This document shows, piece by piece, positions 11,918-18,090 of a stretch of DNA of 64,000 nt. A program made the translations under genes and the position numbers. The notes under the pieces are model-generated. The model saw only the letters and a list, made by a program, of their open reading frames with translations. It made no database searches and had not been told where the DNA came from. The number at the start of each line of letters is the position of its first letter. The stretch's first letter is position 1. The stretch spans positions 514-64,513 of the forward strand of contig CBIHRW010000015.1 of NCBI GenBank assembly GCA_966212545.1, given 5' to 3'. The stretch comes from an uncultured Noviherbaspirillum sp. Lineage in GTDB: Bacteria > Pseudomonadota > Gammaproteobacteria > Burkholderiales > Burkholderiaceae_D.

Positions 11918-13702
11918 TCAATCCACCCGCGCCTCGTCCTTCACCTTGATCCCGTCCTGCTCGAAGGATTGCTCCAGCGCCTCGCGCGCAGCCCTGGCGA
12001 TGGAGATGGTTTTCATGTCGTCGCGGAAGTGCGGGAACATCGCGTCCAGCGTCTCCAAGTTGTGCTCCCGGAACTTGACCCGGGCGAGTTCTGCGGTGTG
12101 CGGATCGAATCCCATCTGTTCCAGTGCCCTGCGCGCGATGAGCAAAGCCGATTCGAATGTTTCCCGCTCGAACATCTCGATGCCGCGACTGCGCAGCTCG
12201 AAGACATGGGGCACATCGCGCGCCCTGCTGATGAGCTTGAGGTGCGGGAAATGCGAGCGCACCAGGTCGACCAGCCTGAGGTTGCTCTCGACGTCGTCGA
12301 TGGCGTTGATCAGCAGGATTGCCTTGTCCGCCTCCGCCGCGCGCAGCAAGTCCAGCCGCGTGGCATCGCCGTAGTAGACCTTGAAGCCGAAGCGGCTGAC
12401 GGTGTCGATCATGTCCGGGTCGTTGTCGAGCACGGTGGCTTTAATGCCCGAGGCATAGAGCATGCGGCCGACGATCTGGCCGACGCGGCCGAAGCCGGCG
12501 ATGATGACGCGCGCGCCGCCGGGTTCGATGGTGTCGGTCTCGCGCGGCGGCGCTTCATGGAACTTCCTGCCCAGCCAGTTGCCGGCGTTTAAAGCCAGCG
12601 GCGTCAGTGCCATGGACACGGCAACCACCAGGGGCAGCATGTCGTTCCAGGGTTGCGGGATGAGCTTGGCGTCGCTCGCGGCGGCGAACAGCACGAATGC
12701 GAATTCACTGCCCTGCGCCAGCAGTCCGGCAAAGCTCAAGCGCTGGACAGGGGCAATCGGCAGCACGCGCGCGAGCAGGCCGAGCAGCGCCATCTTCAGC
12801 AGCATGTAGACCACCGTGACGCCGAGGATGGTCAGCGGCGCCGATGCCAGCAGGTCAAGGTTCATCGACATGCCGACCGAGGTGAAGAACAGGCCGAGCA
12901 GCAGGCCCTTGAAGGGCTCAAGGTCGGTCTCCAGCGCCTTGCGGTACTCCGACTGTGCAAGCAGGACGCCGGCGAGGAAGGCGCCCAGACCCATCGACAG
13001 GTTGGCCAGCGTCATCAAATGCGCCGTTCCCAGCACCAGCAGCAACGAGAACGCGGTGAAAATTTCTCGCAGCTTGGTGCGCGCAATCAGGCGCAGGCAG
13101 GGGCGCAGCATGTAGCGGCCCATGAGGTAGACAGCGGCGAGCGCGGCAGCGGCCAGCAGCCAGTTGAAGCCTTCGCCGCTTGCCGCCCTCTGCGCGCCGA
13201 GCAGCGGCACGACGACCAGCAGCGGAATTGCCGCCATGTCCTGGAACAGCAGGATGGCGAAGGCGTTCTTGCCCGCCGGCGTATTCTGCAGATGCTTCTC
13301 CTGCATGCTTTGCATTGCGATCGCGGTCGACGACAGCGCCAGTGCGAGCCCGGTGACAAGCGCAGCCACCAAGGGCATCCCGGCGAGCCAGGCCACGCCG
13401 GCCAGCGGAATGCCGCATGCCAGCATCTGCAGGGTGCCGCCGCCGAACACGATGGTGCGCATCTCCAGCAGCTTCTTCGGCTGCAGTTCCAGGCCGATGA
13501 GGAAGAGCATCAGTACCACACCGATCTCGGCAACATGGCTGATCACCTCGACGTTCTTGACCACAGCCAGTCCCCAGGGGCCGATGAGGCATCCGCCGAC
13601 CAGGTAGCCGAGCACGGAACCGAGGCCGAGCCGCTGCGCGAGCGGCACGAGCAGGACGGCGGTCAGGAGGAAAACGAGAGGCGTAGGCAGCAGGTCGTGC
13701 AT
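11918..13702 (-). CDS. Glutathione-regulated K+ efflux / CPA2 monovalent cation:proton antiporter (KefB/KefC type) with C-terminal RCK/TrkA-N domain
   Basis: 594 aa. Roughly 12 TM helices, then a Rossmann motif IIAGFGRVGQIVGR and the KTN domain. Confidence 0.85.
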   Translation of the reverse strand: MHDLLPTPLVFLLTAVLLVPLAQRLGLGSVLGYLVGGCLIGPWGLAVVKNVEVISHVAEIGVVLMLFLIGLELQPKKLLEMRTIVFGGGTLQMLACGIPLAGVAWLAGMPLVAALVTGLALALSSTAIAMQSMQEKHLQNTPAGKNAFAILLFQDMAAIPLLVVVPLLGAQRAASGEGFNWLLAAAALAAVYLMGRYMLRPCLRLIARTKLREIFTAFSLLLVLGTAHLMTLANLSMGLGAFLAGVLLAQSEYRKALETDLEPFKGLLLGLFFTSVGMSMNLDLLASAPLTILGVTVVYMLLKMALLGLLARVLPIAPVQRLSFAGLLAQGSEFAFVLFAAASDAKLIPQPWNDMLPLVVAVSMALTPLALNAGNWLGRKFHEAPPRETDTIEPGGARVIIAGFGRVGQIVGRMLYASGIKATVLDNDPDMIDTVSRFGFKVYYGDATRLDLLRAAEADKAILLINAIDDVESNLRLVDLVRSHFPHLKLISRARDVPHVFELRSRGIEMFERETFESALLIARRALEQMGFDPHTAELARVKFREHNLETLDAMFPHFRDDMKTISIARAAREALEQSFEQDGIKVKDEARVD

Positions 13703-13826: not shown

Positions 13827-14462
13827 ATGAGTTACCTAAAAGAAATCGCTCTTCTACAGTGCGAGAAGGCGGTGGAGCGTCCTGGCGGTTTGCTTCGTCC
13901 CGCCCCGCCCTTGAATAGGGCAGTCCAACGCTTCACCGTCCTGATCGCGCTCTTCACTGCCGGGTTCCTGCTTTACGGTGCGTGGTCCTTCAAGACGCTG
14001 GAGGAGCTGAAAGTCAACGGCCCGCTCTACCAGCGCATCGTTCAGTGCAGGAACCTGATCGCCGACATCCTGCCGCCTCCCGAATACGTCATCGAGTCCT
14101 GCCTGGTCACCATGCAGATGCATGACGCCGCAGACAAGGCTGAGGTGGATCGCCTCAAGGTCCTGAAGGGCGACTACGACATACGTCATGCGTTCTGGCA
14201 AAAGGAAGTCCTGGAGAAGGATCTTGCCGATGCCTTCCTGCGCAGCGCACATGATCCGACAACCGCTTTTTATGGGGTGGCATTCAATGAATTCATCCCT
14301 GTCGTGCAGAAGCAGGATAAGGATGTGGCGAACACGGCGAAGGGGCGCATGAAGCAGCACGACGAGGCACATTGCAAGGCGGTCCACCAAGTGGTGCAGA
14401 TGACGACCCGGCGCTACGAGGGTGACGAGGCGGGTGCCAGGGCGAGCATCGAGTCCAGATGA
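13827..14462 (+). CDS. Membrane-anchored helical-domain protein, sensor-module-like, with no output domain
   Basis: TM helix FTVLIALFTAGFLLYGAW, then a helical region with NGPLYQRIV...ADILPPPEYVIES. This resembles (from memory) N-terminal ligand-binding bundles of MCP/GGDEF proteins. The ORF ends at 211 aa and is followed by a hairpin terminator. No obvious RBS. Confidence 0.45.
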   Translation: MSYLKEIALLQCEKAVERPGGLLRPAPPLNRAVQRFTVLIALFTAGFLLYGAWSFKTLEELKVNGPLYQRIVQCRNLIADILPPPEYVIESCLVTMQMHDAADKAEVDRLKVLKGDYDIRHAFWQKEVLEKDLADAFLRSAHDPTTAFYGVAFNEFIPVVQKQDKDVANTAKGRMKQHDEAHCKAVHQVVQMTTRRYEGDEAGARASIESR

Positions 14463-14508: not shown

Positions 14509-14594
14509 AAGGGCAGCCGGCGGGGTGGAAGGTTGGGATGGGGGTAATGAAATCTAGCGATCCGTCTTTGTCCCGCATGCACCACCTCCCGGCT

Positions 14595-17318
14595 TCACAC
14601 TCCAGACGCTGTCCTCTCGCTCCCCAGCACCGTATTCAGCAGCAAGGCCAGGTTGCGCGCGGCCGCGGTCAACTGCGCCGTCACGATCGGCTTGCAGCGG
14701 CTGTCGTACGCCGCCTTCCCTTCCCACGAGACCTTGTACTTGCCGCCGTCCAGCCTGTCGGTGATGCGCAGGGTCTCGTAGGCGGCGCGCGCATGCAGGA
14801 GCGCCGTATTGGCCCACTGCACGCCCCATTGGTCTGGCGGCACGGTTTCCGCGAGGCCGACTGCATCCTCTCCCGTTGTCGTCCTGTTCGCTTCGATCAT
14901 TTCCAGCAGCTTGTTGATGAAACGCTTCTTCATGTCCGGGCTGGCCGGTTCGTCGCTTCCACCCGCCGTCATCGCTTCGATATTGCCGGGAATGCGGCTG
15001 TCCCAGTAGGCATGCAGGCTTACATTGCCGCCGAGGGGCAGGATGAGGTTGTTGCCGCCCTTGTCGTGCGGCAGCCTTTTGCGCAGGATGGTCTGCGGGT
15101 CGGACACCAGTTGCGGCATGCCCCCGGATGCATCGATGAAGCCGCAGCCGATGTGCACCGGCTGGTGCACGTCACCGACCAGATGCACCAGCCAGCGCAA
15201 CGCGTTCAGCTTGCTCATCACCTTAGAGTCGCCCTGCAGCACCCGCACCGTAACCCGGACCATTTCCACCACATCGTCGCTGCGCGTAAATTCGAGGCGC
15301 TTCGCCTCGGCATAGCTGGGCACGCCGAGCGGCAGGTTGACGTAGTGCCAGTCCCTGCTTTCCGCATTCGGAAAATCGCGCAGGAATTCGGCGGTGTCCG
15401 GATCGACGCTGGATCCCGGCCCGCCGCCCTTGATGCGGTCGGCCCAGCCTGCGATCTCCCTCAGGCTGGCCTCTGTGCCGAGCGGCGCGAGCAGGCGCTC
15501 GACCTCTTCGCGGGCGCGCTGGTTCAGCAGGCGGTCGGCTGCACCGGCGATCAGCTCGTGGCGCGAGATGCCCCAGAACTCGGAGGCATACAGAGTGGCG
15601 TTCTCCCTGGTCAGCTCGTCGCGCGGTACCGTGCGGCCATAGACCGGCGCCGCGGCGCCGCCGCGCGGCTGCGCAGAAGGATTGTGCAGCGGCTGCAGGC
15701 TTTCGAAGGCCGCGCGTACCGCTGCGTCCGCATCGACGCAGCCATGCCCGAAGTAGATGGAATGGCCGTTTTCATCATACGTCTCGGGGTCGCCGACCTT
15801 GCGTGCCGTGCTCTGCAGAATCTGCTTCACCTGCCGCGCCGTCAGCGCGGGGTTGACCGACAGCACCAGCGCGCAGATGCCGGCCACCAGCGGCGTGGCG
15901 CTCGAGGTGCCGCCGAAGGTCCGGGTGTAGTCGCCGGCCTCGTATCCGGCCTCATACGTCACACCCTGGAACTGGAAGGTGCCGCGTACATCGGAGGTAA
16001 GGATGCCCCTGCCACCCGCGCCGCTCGACGGTGCGCAGATAGCGATTTCCTTGCCGAAGTTGGAGTAATTCGATTTTTCGTCGCGGCTGTTGCAGGCGGC
16101 GACGGCAAGCACATCGGGATGCGTGGCGAATCCGTCCACGGTGCCGCCTTGCGGATCGTTGATGTCATGATTGGAATTTCCCGCCGCAAAGACCACGACG
16201 CAGCCCCGTCCGTTGCGGCCTTCGGTCGCGCATTCGGCAATGGCTTCGTCCATTGCCGTCGACAGGTAGAACTCGTCCGCGGCGACGCCCCAGCTGCAGC
16301 TCACTACCCACGCCCCTTGCGTTGCGACGTAGGCGAACTGCCGCCTGATGGTGTCGTCGGAGATCGAGCTGTTCCAGCGCACAGGCATGAAGCGGCAGCC
16401 CGGCGCGGCGCCGATGATGCCGCCGGCGCTGGCATTGCCGATCGCCACGCCCGCGCAGGCGGTGCCGTGGTAGTCGCCACGCCGCGAATCGGGATGGAAG
16501 CGCCTGGGCGAAGGATTGTCGGTGTTCGTCGTGAAATCCCATGGCGCAACAACTTTGCTGTTGCCCGACAGGTCGGGATGCGACAGATCAAAGCCGTCGT
16601 CGATCACCGCGACGATGCACGCCGGCGAACCGAGCGATTGCGCGCGCTCCCATGCGGCGGTGACGCGCGCATCCGCGCCGGGTTTCAGACCCAGCGAACT
16701 GCCGAACTGGACGCCGTCATTTTTCAGGTGCCACTGGTCCCGGAGGAAGCTGTCGACCGGCATCTGGAAAGCAAGCAATTGCCCCGGCGTAGCCAGGTCG
16801 GGTTCGGCAAGCGCCACCACACCGCCATCCTGCTGCAGCTTCTCGGCAACCTTGAGCGGATTGGGCGCATCGGGCGTCGTCCTCACGGTGAATGTCTCGA
16901 CAGCGGTGCCGTCAGGTTTCTGCTTGAGCGCCGACTCAACGATTTCGAGGTGATTGTCGTCGAGCACCTTCTGGCGCTGGTCGAAGCTCGATGCCGGCGT
17001 GAAGCGCAGCATGATCTTGCCGGTCGGGACGATCGGCGCGGAGCTCTTCGGCGTGTGATAGACGTGCGTGCCGGCATCGACGAGGTAATGGCTGCGCAGC
17101 TTGTCGAGGGTCTCCTCCACCTTGTCCTTCGCCGCGCGCACCTTGACGATCTCGAAGCCGCCGATGCTGGATCCGACATCCGTCGTCGAGACCGCATCCG
17201 GCACCGATGCCAGGACTTCCGCGACTCCCGCCTGCGATGTCGGCCGTATCGCGATCAGGTCATCGCTCTTGACGAGATTGACCATGCCACGGCCGCGCTT
17301 GAGGGTTACCTTGTCCAT
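14595..17318 (-). CDS. Fusion protein: I9-like propeptide region + subtilisin-family (S8) serine protease + S1/P1-type zinc nuclease; no signal peptide
   Basis: Start MDKVTLKRG at 17318, preceded by AAGGA. S8 triad motifs are VAVIDDGFD, HGTACAG and GGTSSATP, plus oxyanion AAGNS. The C-terminal domain has WGISRH, GWADRIK, WHYVNLP, LVHLVGDVHQPVH, DKGGNN and LHAYWD, the full S1/P1 nuclease ligand pattern. Confidence 0.85.
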   Translation of the reverse strand: MDKVTLKRGRGMVNLVKSDDLIAIRPTSQAGVAEVLASVPDAVSTTDVGSSIGGFEIVKVRAAKDKVEETLDKLRSHYLVDAGTHVYHTPKSSAPIVPTGKIMLRFTPASSFDQRQKVLDDNHLEIVESALKQKPDGTAVETFTVRTTPDAPNPLKVAEKLQQDGGVVALAEPDLATPGQLLAFQMPVDSFLRDQWHLKNDGVQFGSSLGLKPGADARVTAAWERAQSLGSPACIVAVIDDGFDLSHPDLSGNSKVVAPWDFTTNTDNPSPRRFHPDSRRGDYHGTACAGVAIGNASAGGIIGAAPGCRFMPVRWNSSISDDTIRRQFAYVATQGAWVVSCSWGVAADEFYLSTAMDEAIAECATEGRNGRGCVVVFAAGNSNHDINDPQGGTVDGFATHPDVLAVAACNSRDEKSNYSNFGKEIAICAPSSGAGGRGILTSDVRGTFQFQGVTYEAGYEAGDYTRTFGGTSSATPLVAGICALVLSVNPALTARQVKQILQSTARKVGDPETYDENGHSIYFGHGCVDADAAVRAAFESLQPLHNPSAQPRGGAAAPVYGRTVPRDELTRENATLYASEFWGISRHELIAGAADRLLNQRAREEVERLLAPLGTEASLREIAGWADRIKGGGPGSSVDPDTAEFLRDFPNAESRDWHYVNLPLGVPSYAEAKRLEFTRSDDVVEMVRVTVRVLQGDSKVMSKLNALRWLVHLVGDVHQPVHIGCGFIDASGGMPQLVSDPQTILRKRLPHDKGGNNLILPLGGNVSLHAYWDSRIPGNIEAMTAGGSDEPASPDMKKRFINKLLEMIEANRTTTGEDAVGLAETVPPDQWGVQWANTALLHARAAYETLRITDRLDGGKYKVSWEGKAAYDSRCKPIVTAQLTAAARNLALLLNTVLGSERTASGV

Positions 17319-17601
17319 TGTCGAATCCTTTCCAGAACTCAATTCATAAACAGGAGAGCCGGCGCCCCCCGGCGCCCGCGGTACAAGACGCGTTGCCAGG
17401 GCAGGCTCCAGGGCGCCTTCGCGATCTCGCCCGATGCGGCGAACGGCCCCATGAGAAAAGACGCCCAGGGGGGCCCCCAAGGACAGCTTAGCCGGACATT
17501 GTCACCGGCCGCTGATCTTCGGCAAAGCTACGCGCCGGAAGGTGGATATGATTTCGATTAAGATTGCCGGCGGCCATAATCAAAAATCACGGGAGACATC
17601 A

Positions 17602-18090
17602 TTGAGCACACATACCGGCTGCCTGTTCTGCAAGATCGTGGGGAAGAAGGAACCTGCGGTGCATGTTCATGAAGACGACGTCTGCATTGCCTTCATGGAC
17701 ATTCATCCGCTGGGCAAGGGGCATGTGCTTGTCATTCCGCGCCGGCACGCGCAAAAGCTCGATGAACTCGATACGCGCTCCCGCATGCACCTTTACGCGG
17801 TGTGCGACCGCATCGTTGCTGCGCAGCGCCTGGCGGGCTTCGGCGTGAACGGGTCGCATCTGCTGCTCAATGACGGCAAGGCGGCAAACCAGCATGTGCC
17901 GCATGTGCACTTTCATCTGATTCCCCGCAGCGGAAGCGACAGTCTCGGATTCTTTTTCCGGATGCTCCTGCACTTCACCGGATTGTTCGGGCTGCGGACG
18001 CCTGCCCGGACGCTGCAGTTGCAGGCGGACCTGATCCGCAAGCAGATGCAGCGGGCTGAAGCCGACGAGGCGCTTGCCCGCTCCGCGTAA
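17602..18090 (+). CDS. HIT family protein (histidine triad nucleotide hydrolase/transferase) with ~45-aa C-terminal extension
   Basis: CLFCKIV..., then the histidine triad HVPHVHFHLIP. The likely start is TTG at 17602, 5 nt after GGGAGA. The ORF-track start at 17542 is the alternative. Confidence 0.8.
   Translation: MSTHTGCLFCKIVGKKEPAVHVHEDDVCIAFMDIHPLGKGHVLVIPRRHAQKLDELDTRSRMHLYAVCDRIVAAQRLAGFGVNGSHLLLNDGKAANQHVPHVHFHLIPRSGSDSLGFFFRMLLHFTGLFGLRTPARTLQLQADLIRKQMQRAEADEALARSA

Follow-up and report, generated by a model that had tools for sequence, protein, structure and literature searches.

How can a nuclease work when the Trp that should stand at its N-terminus and bind zinc there is encoded in the middle of a longer chain? 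This question is raised by a gene in a stretch of 64,000 nucleotides (nt) from an uncultured Noviherbaspirillum sp. (NCBI GenBank assembly GCA_966212545.1, contig CBIHRW010000015.1, positions 514 to 64,513 of the forward strand), which is referred to here as the window. The gene (14595..17318, minus strand) encodes a protein of 907 amino acids (aa) in which an S1/P1 nuclease follows an S8 protease. An earlier note on this DNA had named the mature N-terminal Trp1 of such nucleases as a zinc ligand and had proposed that the nuclease remains latent until the protease cuts in front of the corresponding residue, W582. Published work confirms the premise. The mature S1 chain starts at Trp once the signal peptide is removed, and this N-terminal Trp is part of the zinc cluster (PMC5201275). 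In SmNuc1, expressed behind a cleavable MalE signal peptide, the N-terminal Trp27 coordinates the zinc cluster (PMC11705217), and in Listeria PC-PLC, an enzyme of the phospholipase C/P1 fold, one extra residue before W1 abolishes activity (PMC10576769). Based on the comparative analysis below, we favor, at a probability of roughly 0.55, a protease-gated nuclease zymogen in which a cut directly before W582, most likely made by the attached S8 domain after release of its prodomain, creates the α-amino zinc ligand.

Domain Organization of the Fusion Protein

Window positions are used throughout, and all features of the fusion gene lie on the minus strand. The open reading frame (ORF) starts at 17318 with MDKVTLK, a start that is kept among homologues as MDxVTLKxGRG, and ends with a stop codon at 14595..14597. 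Its 907-aa product consists of an N-terminal domain, an S8 protease, a linker and an S1/P1 nuclease, without a signal peptide. The protein looks cytoplasmic from its sequence, since a hydrophobic signal-like stretch is absent from the N-terminus and residues 3–26 form β strands of a confidently predicted domain in the AlphaFold2 model (mean predicted local distance difference test score, pLDDT, of the full-length model 75.8).

The nuclease domain (aa 582–907; 14598..15575) matches the Pfam family S1-P1_nuclease (PF02265) at aa 582–898 with an E-value of 1.4e-28 and 100.9 bits (cut-off 29.5), covering positions 1–257 of the 258 in the profile. W582 (15573..15575, cca on the plus strand) is profile position 1 and thus the equivalent of the zinc-ligand Trp1 of mature S1/P1 nucleases. 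Residue 1 (Trp) of the PDB chains 8qjl, 3w52, and 4cxo aligns to it, with 8qjl being the best PDB relative of the domain (E-value 1.3e-22), and W582 is invariant across 55 fusion proteins. All nine zinc-ligand positions are present (W582, H587, D627, H658, H712, D716, H722, H769, and D773) and invariant in a 22-sequence subfamily alignment; we take the corresponding ligands in P1 numbering to be Trp1, His6, Asp45, His60, His116, Asp120, His126, His149, and Asp153. The nuclease motifs also align residue by residue to SmNuc1. The encoded chain does not provide this Trp as a free N-terminus, W582 being internal and a signal peptide being absent.

The Peptidase S8 catalytic domain (aa 234–514; 15777..16619) is recognized by Pfam with 145.5 bits and an E-value of 2.7e-42, and Foldseek comparison with subtilases gave E-values as low as 1e-19. 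The catalytic residues D240 (16599..16601), H284 (16467..16469), and S472 (15903..15905) occur in subtilase order and, like the oxyanion residue N381 (16176..16178), are invariant across the 55 fusion proteins. Judged by their catalytic and ligand residues, both enzyme domains are intact, and both protease activity and the activity typical of S1/P1 nucleases, a Zn-dependent breakdown of ssDNA and RNA to 5′-mononucleotides, are predicted.

The N-terminal domain (aa 1–181; 16776..17318) is modeled as two tandem ferredoxin-like (β-α-β-β-α-β) units with a pLDDT of 83. It matches no Pfam family in the query. The Inhibitor_I9 family, which the earlier note had supposed to hold the protease in check, was found neither in the query (E-values up to 0.1) nor in 70 relatives (E-values up to 1). 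What stands of that supposition is a prodomain of the fervidolysin type, which is matched in homologues only and weakly: 18 of the 70 relatives match Fervidolysin_NPro-like (best E-value 1.1e-05) and eight match Peptidase_S8_N. A Foldseek search with the N-terminal domain alone returned weak matches to tandem ACT/RRM ferredoxin-like folds, and no specific family could be assigned. The full-length model aligns over 443–495 columns to pro-subtilisin (pro-subtilisin E), fervidolysin and ProN-Tk-SP, compared to about 320 for mature subtilisins. A subtilase prodomain is the probable identity of this domain, perhaps extended by a regulatory unit, with a model-based likeness that holds at the level of the fold only.

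F184 (16767..16769) is the putative autoprocessing site of this prodomain, with Phe as the P1 residue in the motif PG[KRQ]LxAF|xLPxDxLLxxQWHL. It comes right behind the last strand of the prodomain, where a segment with a pLDDT below 50 begins (aa 183–195), and of 70 S8 modules, fused or stand-alone, 67 have Phe at this position. By analogy to pro-subtilisins and kexins, an autoprocessing cut may take place here. The P1 residue at this site and at the F581|W582 junction is the same, Phe.

The N-terminal domain and the S8 protease also exist as a module of their own. Two stand-alone genes (L003:4333-7635 and L086:1-7626) are 80% and 52% identical to the query module and have no nuclease nearby. 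Patatin-like phospholipase genes occur in the vicinity of both, and the surrounding regions are rich in integrase, Fic, SMC-like or insertion sequence (IS) genes. The S8 module may serve other effectors as well.

The Protease–Nuclease Junction

The interval 15573..15710 (residues 537–582) runs from the last part of the protease domain through the linker between the domains to the Trp, with F581 (15576..15578) directly preceding W582 (RENATLYASEF|WGISRHELIAG). Its conservation was assessed in the 31 closest sequences, i.e., the query and 30 relatives that are at least 59% identical. The Trp is internal and preceded by Phe, as the earlier note had read from the single sequence, and both residues are invariant in this sample, together with L576, R586, H587, and E588; Y577 and E580 reach frequencies of 0.90 and 0.87, respectively. 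The F581–W582 arrangement is not a chance feature.

The linker proper (aa 541–574; 15597..15698) is hypervariable, with a mean top-residue frequency of 0.42, an entropy of 2.49 bits and a length ranging from 19 to 40 residues. It is also predicted to be disordered (pLDDT below 50 for aa 542–584). This combination of hypervariability and low pLDDT suggests that the linker is probably flexible and accessible to a protease. The following seven residues, T-L-Y-A-S-E-F (aa 575–581; 15576..15596), have a mean top-residue frequency of 0.81 and an entropy of 0.83 bits. Because this segment is conserved while the linker is hypervariable, selection acts on the seven residues before the Trp and not on the entire linker, and the segment is a putative pro-segment or the P7–P1 positions of an activation site. 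A second, more distant set of S8 fusions (of the WGxxGH type, with a short linker) carries an internal Trp too.

A Signal-Peptide-Less Subfamily of S1/P1 Nucleases

To place the query among S1/P1 nucleases, matches from a nuclease-domain search of 1.84 billion representative proteins and from a second homologue search were aligned to a subfamily model. They separate cleanly into 143 representatives of the query type (WxxxRH, usually RHELIA) and 87 representatives of the canonical type (WGxxGH). An upstream fusion is present in 45 of the former and three of the latter, leaving 98 and 84 stand-alone members, respectively. A signal-peptide-like N-terminus is predicted for 82 of the 84 canonical stand-alone members and for none of the 98 of the query type. 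In canonical members the Trp directly follows the signal peptide. In the query type it is never the encoded start: stand-alone members have 9–50 hydrophilic residues before it, of which only the last seven or so are conserved, and the Trp is residue 10–51 (median 27.5). Among the observations that would speak against its proposal, the earlier note had named a residue before the Trp that is not conserved as a protease-compatible one and stand-alone clade members that do not use an N-terminal Trp. Neither refutation succeeded: Phe precedes the Trp in 110 of the 143 subfamily members, and no stand-alone member encodes an N-terminal Trp or a signal peptide.

The canonical nucleases differ in the residues flanking the Trp. 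They have A, G, P or S at position −1 in 83 of 87 cases and mostly F, L or W at −2, a position that is E in 94 of the 143 query-type members. A motif [LIM][YF]xxx[FWLMYI] directly before the Trp occurs in 104 of 143 query-type and none of 87 canonical sequences. The Trp position itself is occupied by W (115), F (26), Y (1) or H (1) in the query type and by W (71), Y (8) or F (8) in the canonical type. Since the pre-Trp motif is present whether or not a protease is fused, and also with M28, M36 or C14 in place of S8, it is a property of the nuclease subfamily; on this alignment, the segment is a hallmark of the signal-peptide-less branch. A split Chitinophaga nuclease of 311 aa, paired with an S8 protease of 538 aa, illustrates this: it begins MSSTPNDPTRNTAAAATPQEL|WGPVRH, and the unfused form thus still carries a hydrophilic extension of 21 residues. 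The xxxRH subfamily is widespread and apparently undescribed; in the open-access literature searched, we found no description of an S8–S1/P1 fusion, of this subfamily or of a protease-gated S1/P1 nuclease.

Coupling to Peptidases

Gene neighborhoods were compiled from the contigs of homologues and from two scans, one of genomes and one of metagenomes (loci designated L; single proteins P). In the scan of species-representative genomes, the matches listed were mostly canonical secreted nucleases, with only L006, L007, and L008 being of the query type. S8 + S1/P1 fusions are found in more than 50 protein clusters from several phyla, with hosts among the Betaproteobacteria (Noviherbaspirillum, 89% identity), Acidobacteriota (Pyrinomonadaceae) and Bacteroidota (Rhodocytophaga, 65%).

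The link between protease and nuclease assumed in the earlier note is borne out by its recurrence in different arrangements. S8 is fused to the nuclease in the window, L001/L093, L004, L006, L094-L098, and L103; it is encoded by the gene directly upstream in Chitinophaga L005 and L007, and in L008, L090, L104, L107, L110, L117, and L231 (with the two genes overlapping by 4 nt in L005); and in P0042 the order is permuted, the nuclease preceding the S8 domain. Other peptidases take the same place. A HAD+Peptidase_M28 protein is encoded by the next gene in Variovorax L091 and Pseudomonas tructae L092 and is fused in the 1891-aa P0125. In L108, the gene directly upstream encodes a Peptidase_M36 with an FTP propeptide motif; in L113 and L114, the nuclease is preceded by astacin/matrixin-like and M10/M12-like peptidases, and in L233 by an astacin, a Peptidase_C14 and a protein of 836 aa. 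Homology to this C14 protein extends over the first ~250 residues of three long fusions, P0129, L100, and L102. In the remaining cases the nuclease is fused or adjacent to two ~800-aa protein families of unassigned type, X1 and X2.

At least five peptidase families (S8, M28, M36, M10/M12-like, and C14) are thus paired with one nuclease subfamily, and of the evidence presented here, this pairing speaks most strongly for the nuclease being a protease client. One effector family paired with several protease classes is a pattern reported for protease-effector modules (PMC12642450). By raw count, a recognizable peptidase gene lies next to the nuclease gene or no more than ~4 kilobases away at about 15 of the ~20 stand-alone loci that could be evaluated. 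All partner peptidases checked lack a signal-peptide-like N-terminus. Such a lack is unusual for M36, astacin and S8 enzymes. The junction hints at co-variation with the class of the partner protease: nucleases with M10/M12/astacin partners (L113:5950-6876, L114:2164-3081, L116:578-1495) have the junction R|F[GS]APRH and no L[YF]xxEF.

Families X1 (L099:886-3231, L092:9068-11398, L165:3262-6000) and X2 (L101:3514-5955, L233:2467-4977, L100:1092-4130) are unrelated to each other, and both are either fused N-terminally to the subfamily nuclease or encoded alongside it. Sequence searches of Pfam, NCBIfam, and the PDB gave no match for either family; they are candidate proteases or sensors.

Some of the S8–nuclease loci have further genes in common. 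Genes for a GMC oxidoreductase, a ferritin-like protein (PF12902) and a cupin recur beside the S8–nuclease pair or fusion (L004:3513-7271, L005:2822-6987, L007:1157-5314, L110:152-4293, L231:7810-10984), and the genes of L110 agree in size with their counterparts in L005 and L007. Locus L231 (L231:1-10984; GCA_943369735.1) is a dense cluster of degradative genes. It contains an EEP-family gene, a secreted canonical S1/P1 nuclease and a secreted Endonuclease_NS (the latter two with signal peptides), followed by an S8 protease (547 aa), the signal-peptide-less nuclease P0133, a second S8 protease (478 aa), and the cupin and GMC oxidoreductase genes.

Proposed Activation Mechanism

From these observations we infer the following course. 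W582 would be locked in a peptide bond behind the TLYASEF pro-segment, at the end of a disordered linker. As long as this bond is intact, the α-amino ligand would be missing and the preceding residue would not fit the buried Trp pocket, keeping the nuclease latent. Endoproteolysis directly before W582 would then provide the free N-terminus and switch the nuclease on. The likeliest protease for this cut is the attached S8 domain, acting within or between molecules, after having freed itself from its fervidolysin-type prodomain, probably at the F184 site.

Subtilisins select mainly on the P1 residue (here Phe); what thermolysin-like, M36 and matrixin-like enzymes chiefly require is a large hydrophobic residue at P1′ (here Trp or Phe). 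Both types of specificity are compatible with a cut exactly before the Trp, and the deviating R|F junction of the M10/M12-partnered nucleases is in keeping with them.

Extended to the whole family, which we do only tentatively and as a possibility short of even odds, the proposal is that xxxRH-type S1/P1 proteins are widespread, undescribed cytoplasmic nuclease zymogens for which unrelated proteases (S8, M28, M36, M10/M12-like, C14, and perhaps X1/X2) have been recruited to create the N-terminal zinc ligand, and which act as cell-killing effectors in abortive infection or programmed cell death. In this reading, the conserved E-F before the Trp may double as a pseudo-substrate plug, with the carboxylate on zinc and the ring in the base pocket. 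If true, the zymogen proposal would explain a signal-peptide-less branch of a family known only as secreted enzymes, and the chemical switch would be an unusually simple one in which the cut itself makes the metal ligand. S1/P1 nucleases are biotechnology reagents, and a protease-switchable version could be useful. In any case, the comparative data turn a guess from a single sequence into a family-wide testable hypothesis.

Genomic Context and Possible Biological Role

In the window, the fusion gene is flanked by a gene for a KefB-like antiporter (11918..13702) and one of the HIT family (17542..18090). KefB-like, HIT and sensor-kinase genes make up the surroundings of both this locus and its closest relative. 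One flank is not the same in close relatives: where the window has a 211-aa ORF (13827..14462, plus strand) between the KefB-like gene and the fusion gene, L001, whose fusion gene is 89% identical, has a gene for an 836-aa MASE4 sensor histidine kinase. A 1007-aa antisense ORF (14538..17561, plus strand) spans the entire fusion gene. The simplest explanation for this ORF is an antisense frame without stops in a GC-rich (~0.65) gene. BLAST also matches it to antisense ORFs of homologous loci, as expected from homology of the sense strand.

Two origins of the locus were considered. A horizontally acquired island in the window is unsupported, the GC content being like that of the flanks. A phage origin was set aside, since no member of the subfamily was found on viral contigs of IMG/VR, only distant canonical S1/P1 nucleases of at most 34% identity.

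A role in conflict or cell death is pointed to by the patchy spread across phyla at 65–70% identity, the predicted cytoplasmic location of a non-specific nuclease, the swapping of partners, and the occurrence of relatives at sites rich in IS, integrase, Fic or patatin genes. The nuclease is likely a protease-licensed toxic effector in conflict, abortive infection or programmed cell death, which is the weakest step of the argument.

Two loci with different partners, that of the Rhodocytophaga fusion (L004:11911-17843) and that of the Pseudomonas tructae nuclease with M28 (L092:1-5574), have three neighbors in common: uncharacterized proteins of ~608/641 aa and ~368/358 aa, and ribose-5-phosphate isomerase A (RpiA). 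A SLOG/LOG-like gene is also present in L004. These neighbors could hint at nucleotide salvage or at a nucleotide-centered conflict system. A nucleotide-salvage reading of the query (nuclease, LOG-like nucleosidase, RpiA) was set aside, as those genes are absent from the window locus.

Weighing the Alternatives

Several observations weigh against the zymogen proposal or the role attached to it. The AlphaFold2 model, with a pLDDT below 50 for residues 542–584, is silent on whether W582 occupies the zinc site or TLYASEF the S8 cleft. About 15% of the subfamily have S, E, A, D, K or Q at position −1, and in the second S8-fusion clade this position varies (F10, A5, L3, T2, S2, M1, Q1), often with Pro at −2. 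The motif L[YF]xxEF|W is retained with M28, M36 or C14 partners, whose specificities differ from that of S8. Some loci have only X1/X2 as partners, and no recognizable peptidase was found at L106/L112 and L232. The window locus has an ordinary GC content and no defense neighbors, and PADLOC returned only a generic ‘subtilase’ match for the fusion protein (E-value 6.9e-13) and nothing for the conserved neighbors. One part of the earlier note finds no full support in these data, namely its explanation of the Phe by the P1 preference of subtilisins. Since the motif persists with non-S8 partners and the −1 residue varies in the second clade of S8 fusions, Phe is not simply a subtilisin P1 signature, and the liking of subtilisins for Phe is at best part of the explanation.

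The same retention of E at −2 and F at −1 across partner types would be expected from a structural element of the nuclease, and this leads to the alternative that no activation cut takes place at all. The internal Trp would then work as it is, with the pre-Trp segment as a permanent cap and the carboxylate of E580 or another group replacing the α-amino ligand, and protease and nuclease would act in parallel and merely be inherited together. The loci without a recognizable peptidase also fit such an arrangement. Nevertheless, we consider it unlikely, since a single residue added before W1 kills the only tested enzyme of the fold. In addition, the segment ends a disordered, hypervariable linker, and the extension of stand-alone members, 9–50 residues long with conservation confined to the ~7 next to the Trp, resembles a pro-segment rather than a folded cap. 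Parallel action alone also hardly explains the coupling to five unrelated peptidase families.

Another possibility is that cleavage is needed but does not consist of a single S8 cut at F581|W582: the linker could be cut and then trimmed, or another protease of the cell or of an invader could do the work, with the S8 domain having other targets. M28 enzymes are typically exopeptidases, aminopeptidases in particular, and as partners they suggest trimming in some systems; the long disordered linker and a junction motif that is not specific to S8 partners agree with this. Here again the details of the query point the other way. There is no second peptidase near the window locus, the invariant L576 and F581 and the conserved F184 fit one protease that uses one P1 preference twice, and the fused, split and permuted architectures all keep S8 with the nuclease. 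This route is less likely still than an uncleaved active enzyme.

The least likely of the alternatives is an exported toxin or a digestive or predatory enzyme that, like polymorphic toxins, brings its own releasing peptidase, with a non-Sec exit and processing outside the cell. In its favor, subtilisin-type releasing peptidases are listed for polymorphic toxins (Zhang et al., 2012), the hosts are soil saprophytes or predators (Chitinophaga, Sorangium, Acidobacteriota), the L231 S8–nuclease pair adjoins secreted nucleases, and in IS-rich regions the genes downstream of the S8 module vary. Against it, neither nucleases nor partner peptidases have a signal peptide or known trafficking domain, no secretion-system or immunity-like genes flank the window gene or its closest relative as judged by annotation, and the N-terminus is a folded prodomain-like module.

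Comparison With Known Systems

With the polymorphic toxins, the fusion protein has in common a nucleic-acid-degrading C-terminal domain after a subtilisin-type peptidase and modular partners (Zhang et al., 2012). It differs from them by the lack of a trafficking domain, a signal peptide, a secretion-system neighborhood or an obvious immunity gene, none being evident by annotation-level inspection of the flanks (HIT, 211-aa ORF, KefB). As in pro-subtilisins, fervidolysin and Tk-SP, the S8 domain lies behind a ferredoxin-like prodomain with a hydrophobic residue (F184) at the putative junction; unlike them, it has no signal peptide, two tandem N-terminal units and a nuclease attached at the C-terminus.

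The proposed logic resembles that of the antiviral protease-effector modules, in which trypsin-, caspase- or S8-linked effectors (an MBL nuclease zymogen, an α/β-hydrolase, Pepco, EACC1) have been described (Evans et al., 2025; trypsin-MBL preprint). In both cases a toxic effector (with its latency being presumed here) is fused or adjacent to a protease, which can belong to several classes including S8, and the licensing of a Zn-dependent nuclease by cleavage in those modules is the logic proposed here. However, the antiviral modules carry recognizable sensors (STAND, Hachiman, others) and have phage phenotypes, while the window locus has no evident sensor, and the proposed gating by creation of an N-terminal metal ligand differs from the two-site activation of the MBL nuclease. 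We found no mention of S1/P1 nucleases in the protease-effector preprint (Evans et al., 2025). If the proposal is true, a large nuclease family would join the emerging rule that prokaryotic lethal effectors are protease-licensed zymogens.

Canonical S1/P1 nucleases (P1, S1, SmNuc1, AtBFN2/TBN1) and the query subfamily belong to the same Pfam family and share the nine zinc-ligand positions and the WxxxxH start. The former expose Trp1 by signal-peptidase cleavage, whereas the latter has a putative pro-segment with the motif L[YF]xxEF, RHELIA and peptidase partners instead.

The closest parallel in activation comes from the PC-PLC (PlcB)/Mpl pair of Listeria monocytogenes and from Bacillus cereus PC-PLC, which share the fold, the tri-metal site and Trp1 as a ligand. 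Listeria PC-PLC is synthesized in an inactive pro-form. Its propeptide, 26 residues long and cleaved off by the protease Mpl, also inhibits in trans, and the W1F variant of the enzyme stays active (PMC10576769), in agreement with the Phe that 26 of the 143 subfamily members have at the Trp position. Like the query, in which 581 residues lie upstream, it has a non-signal extension directly before the Trp and a genetically linked protease. Unlike the query, PC-PLC is a phospholipase that is secreted, its propeptide comes after a signal peptide, and its protease is secreted as an enzyme of its own; the Noviherbaspirillum protein is a nuclease without signal peptide, with an unrelated pro-segment motif, and in its subfamily the protease is fused or encoded by an adjacent gene. 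Within the fold superfamily there is thus a proven zymogen precedent of exactly the proposed kind, in a phospholipase rather than a nuclease.

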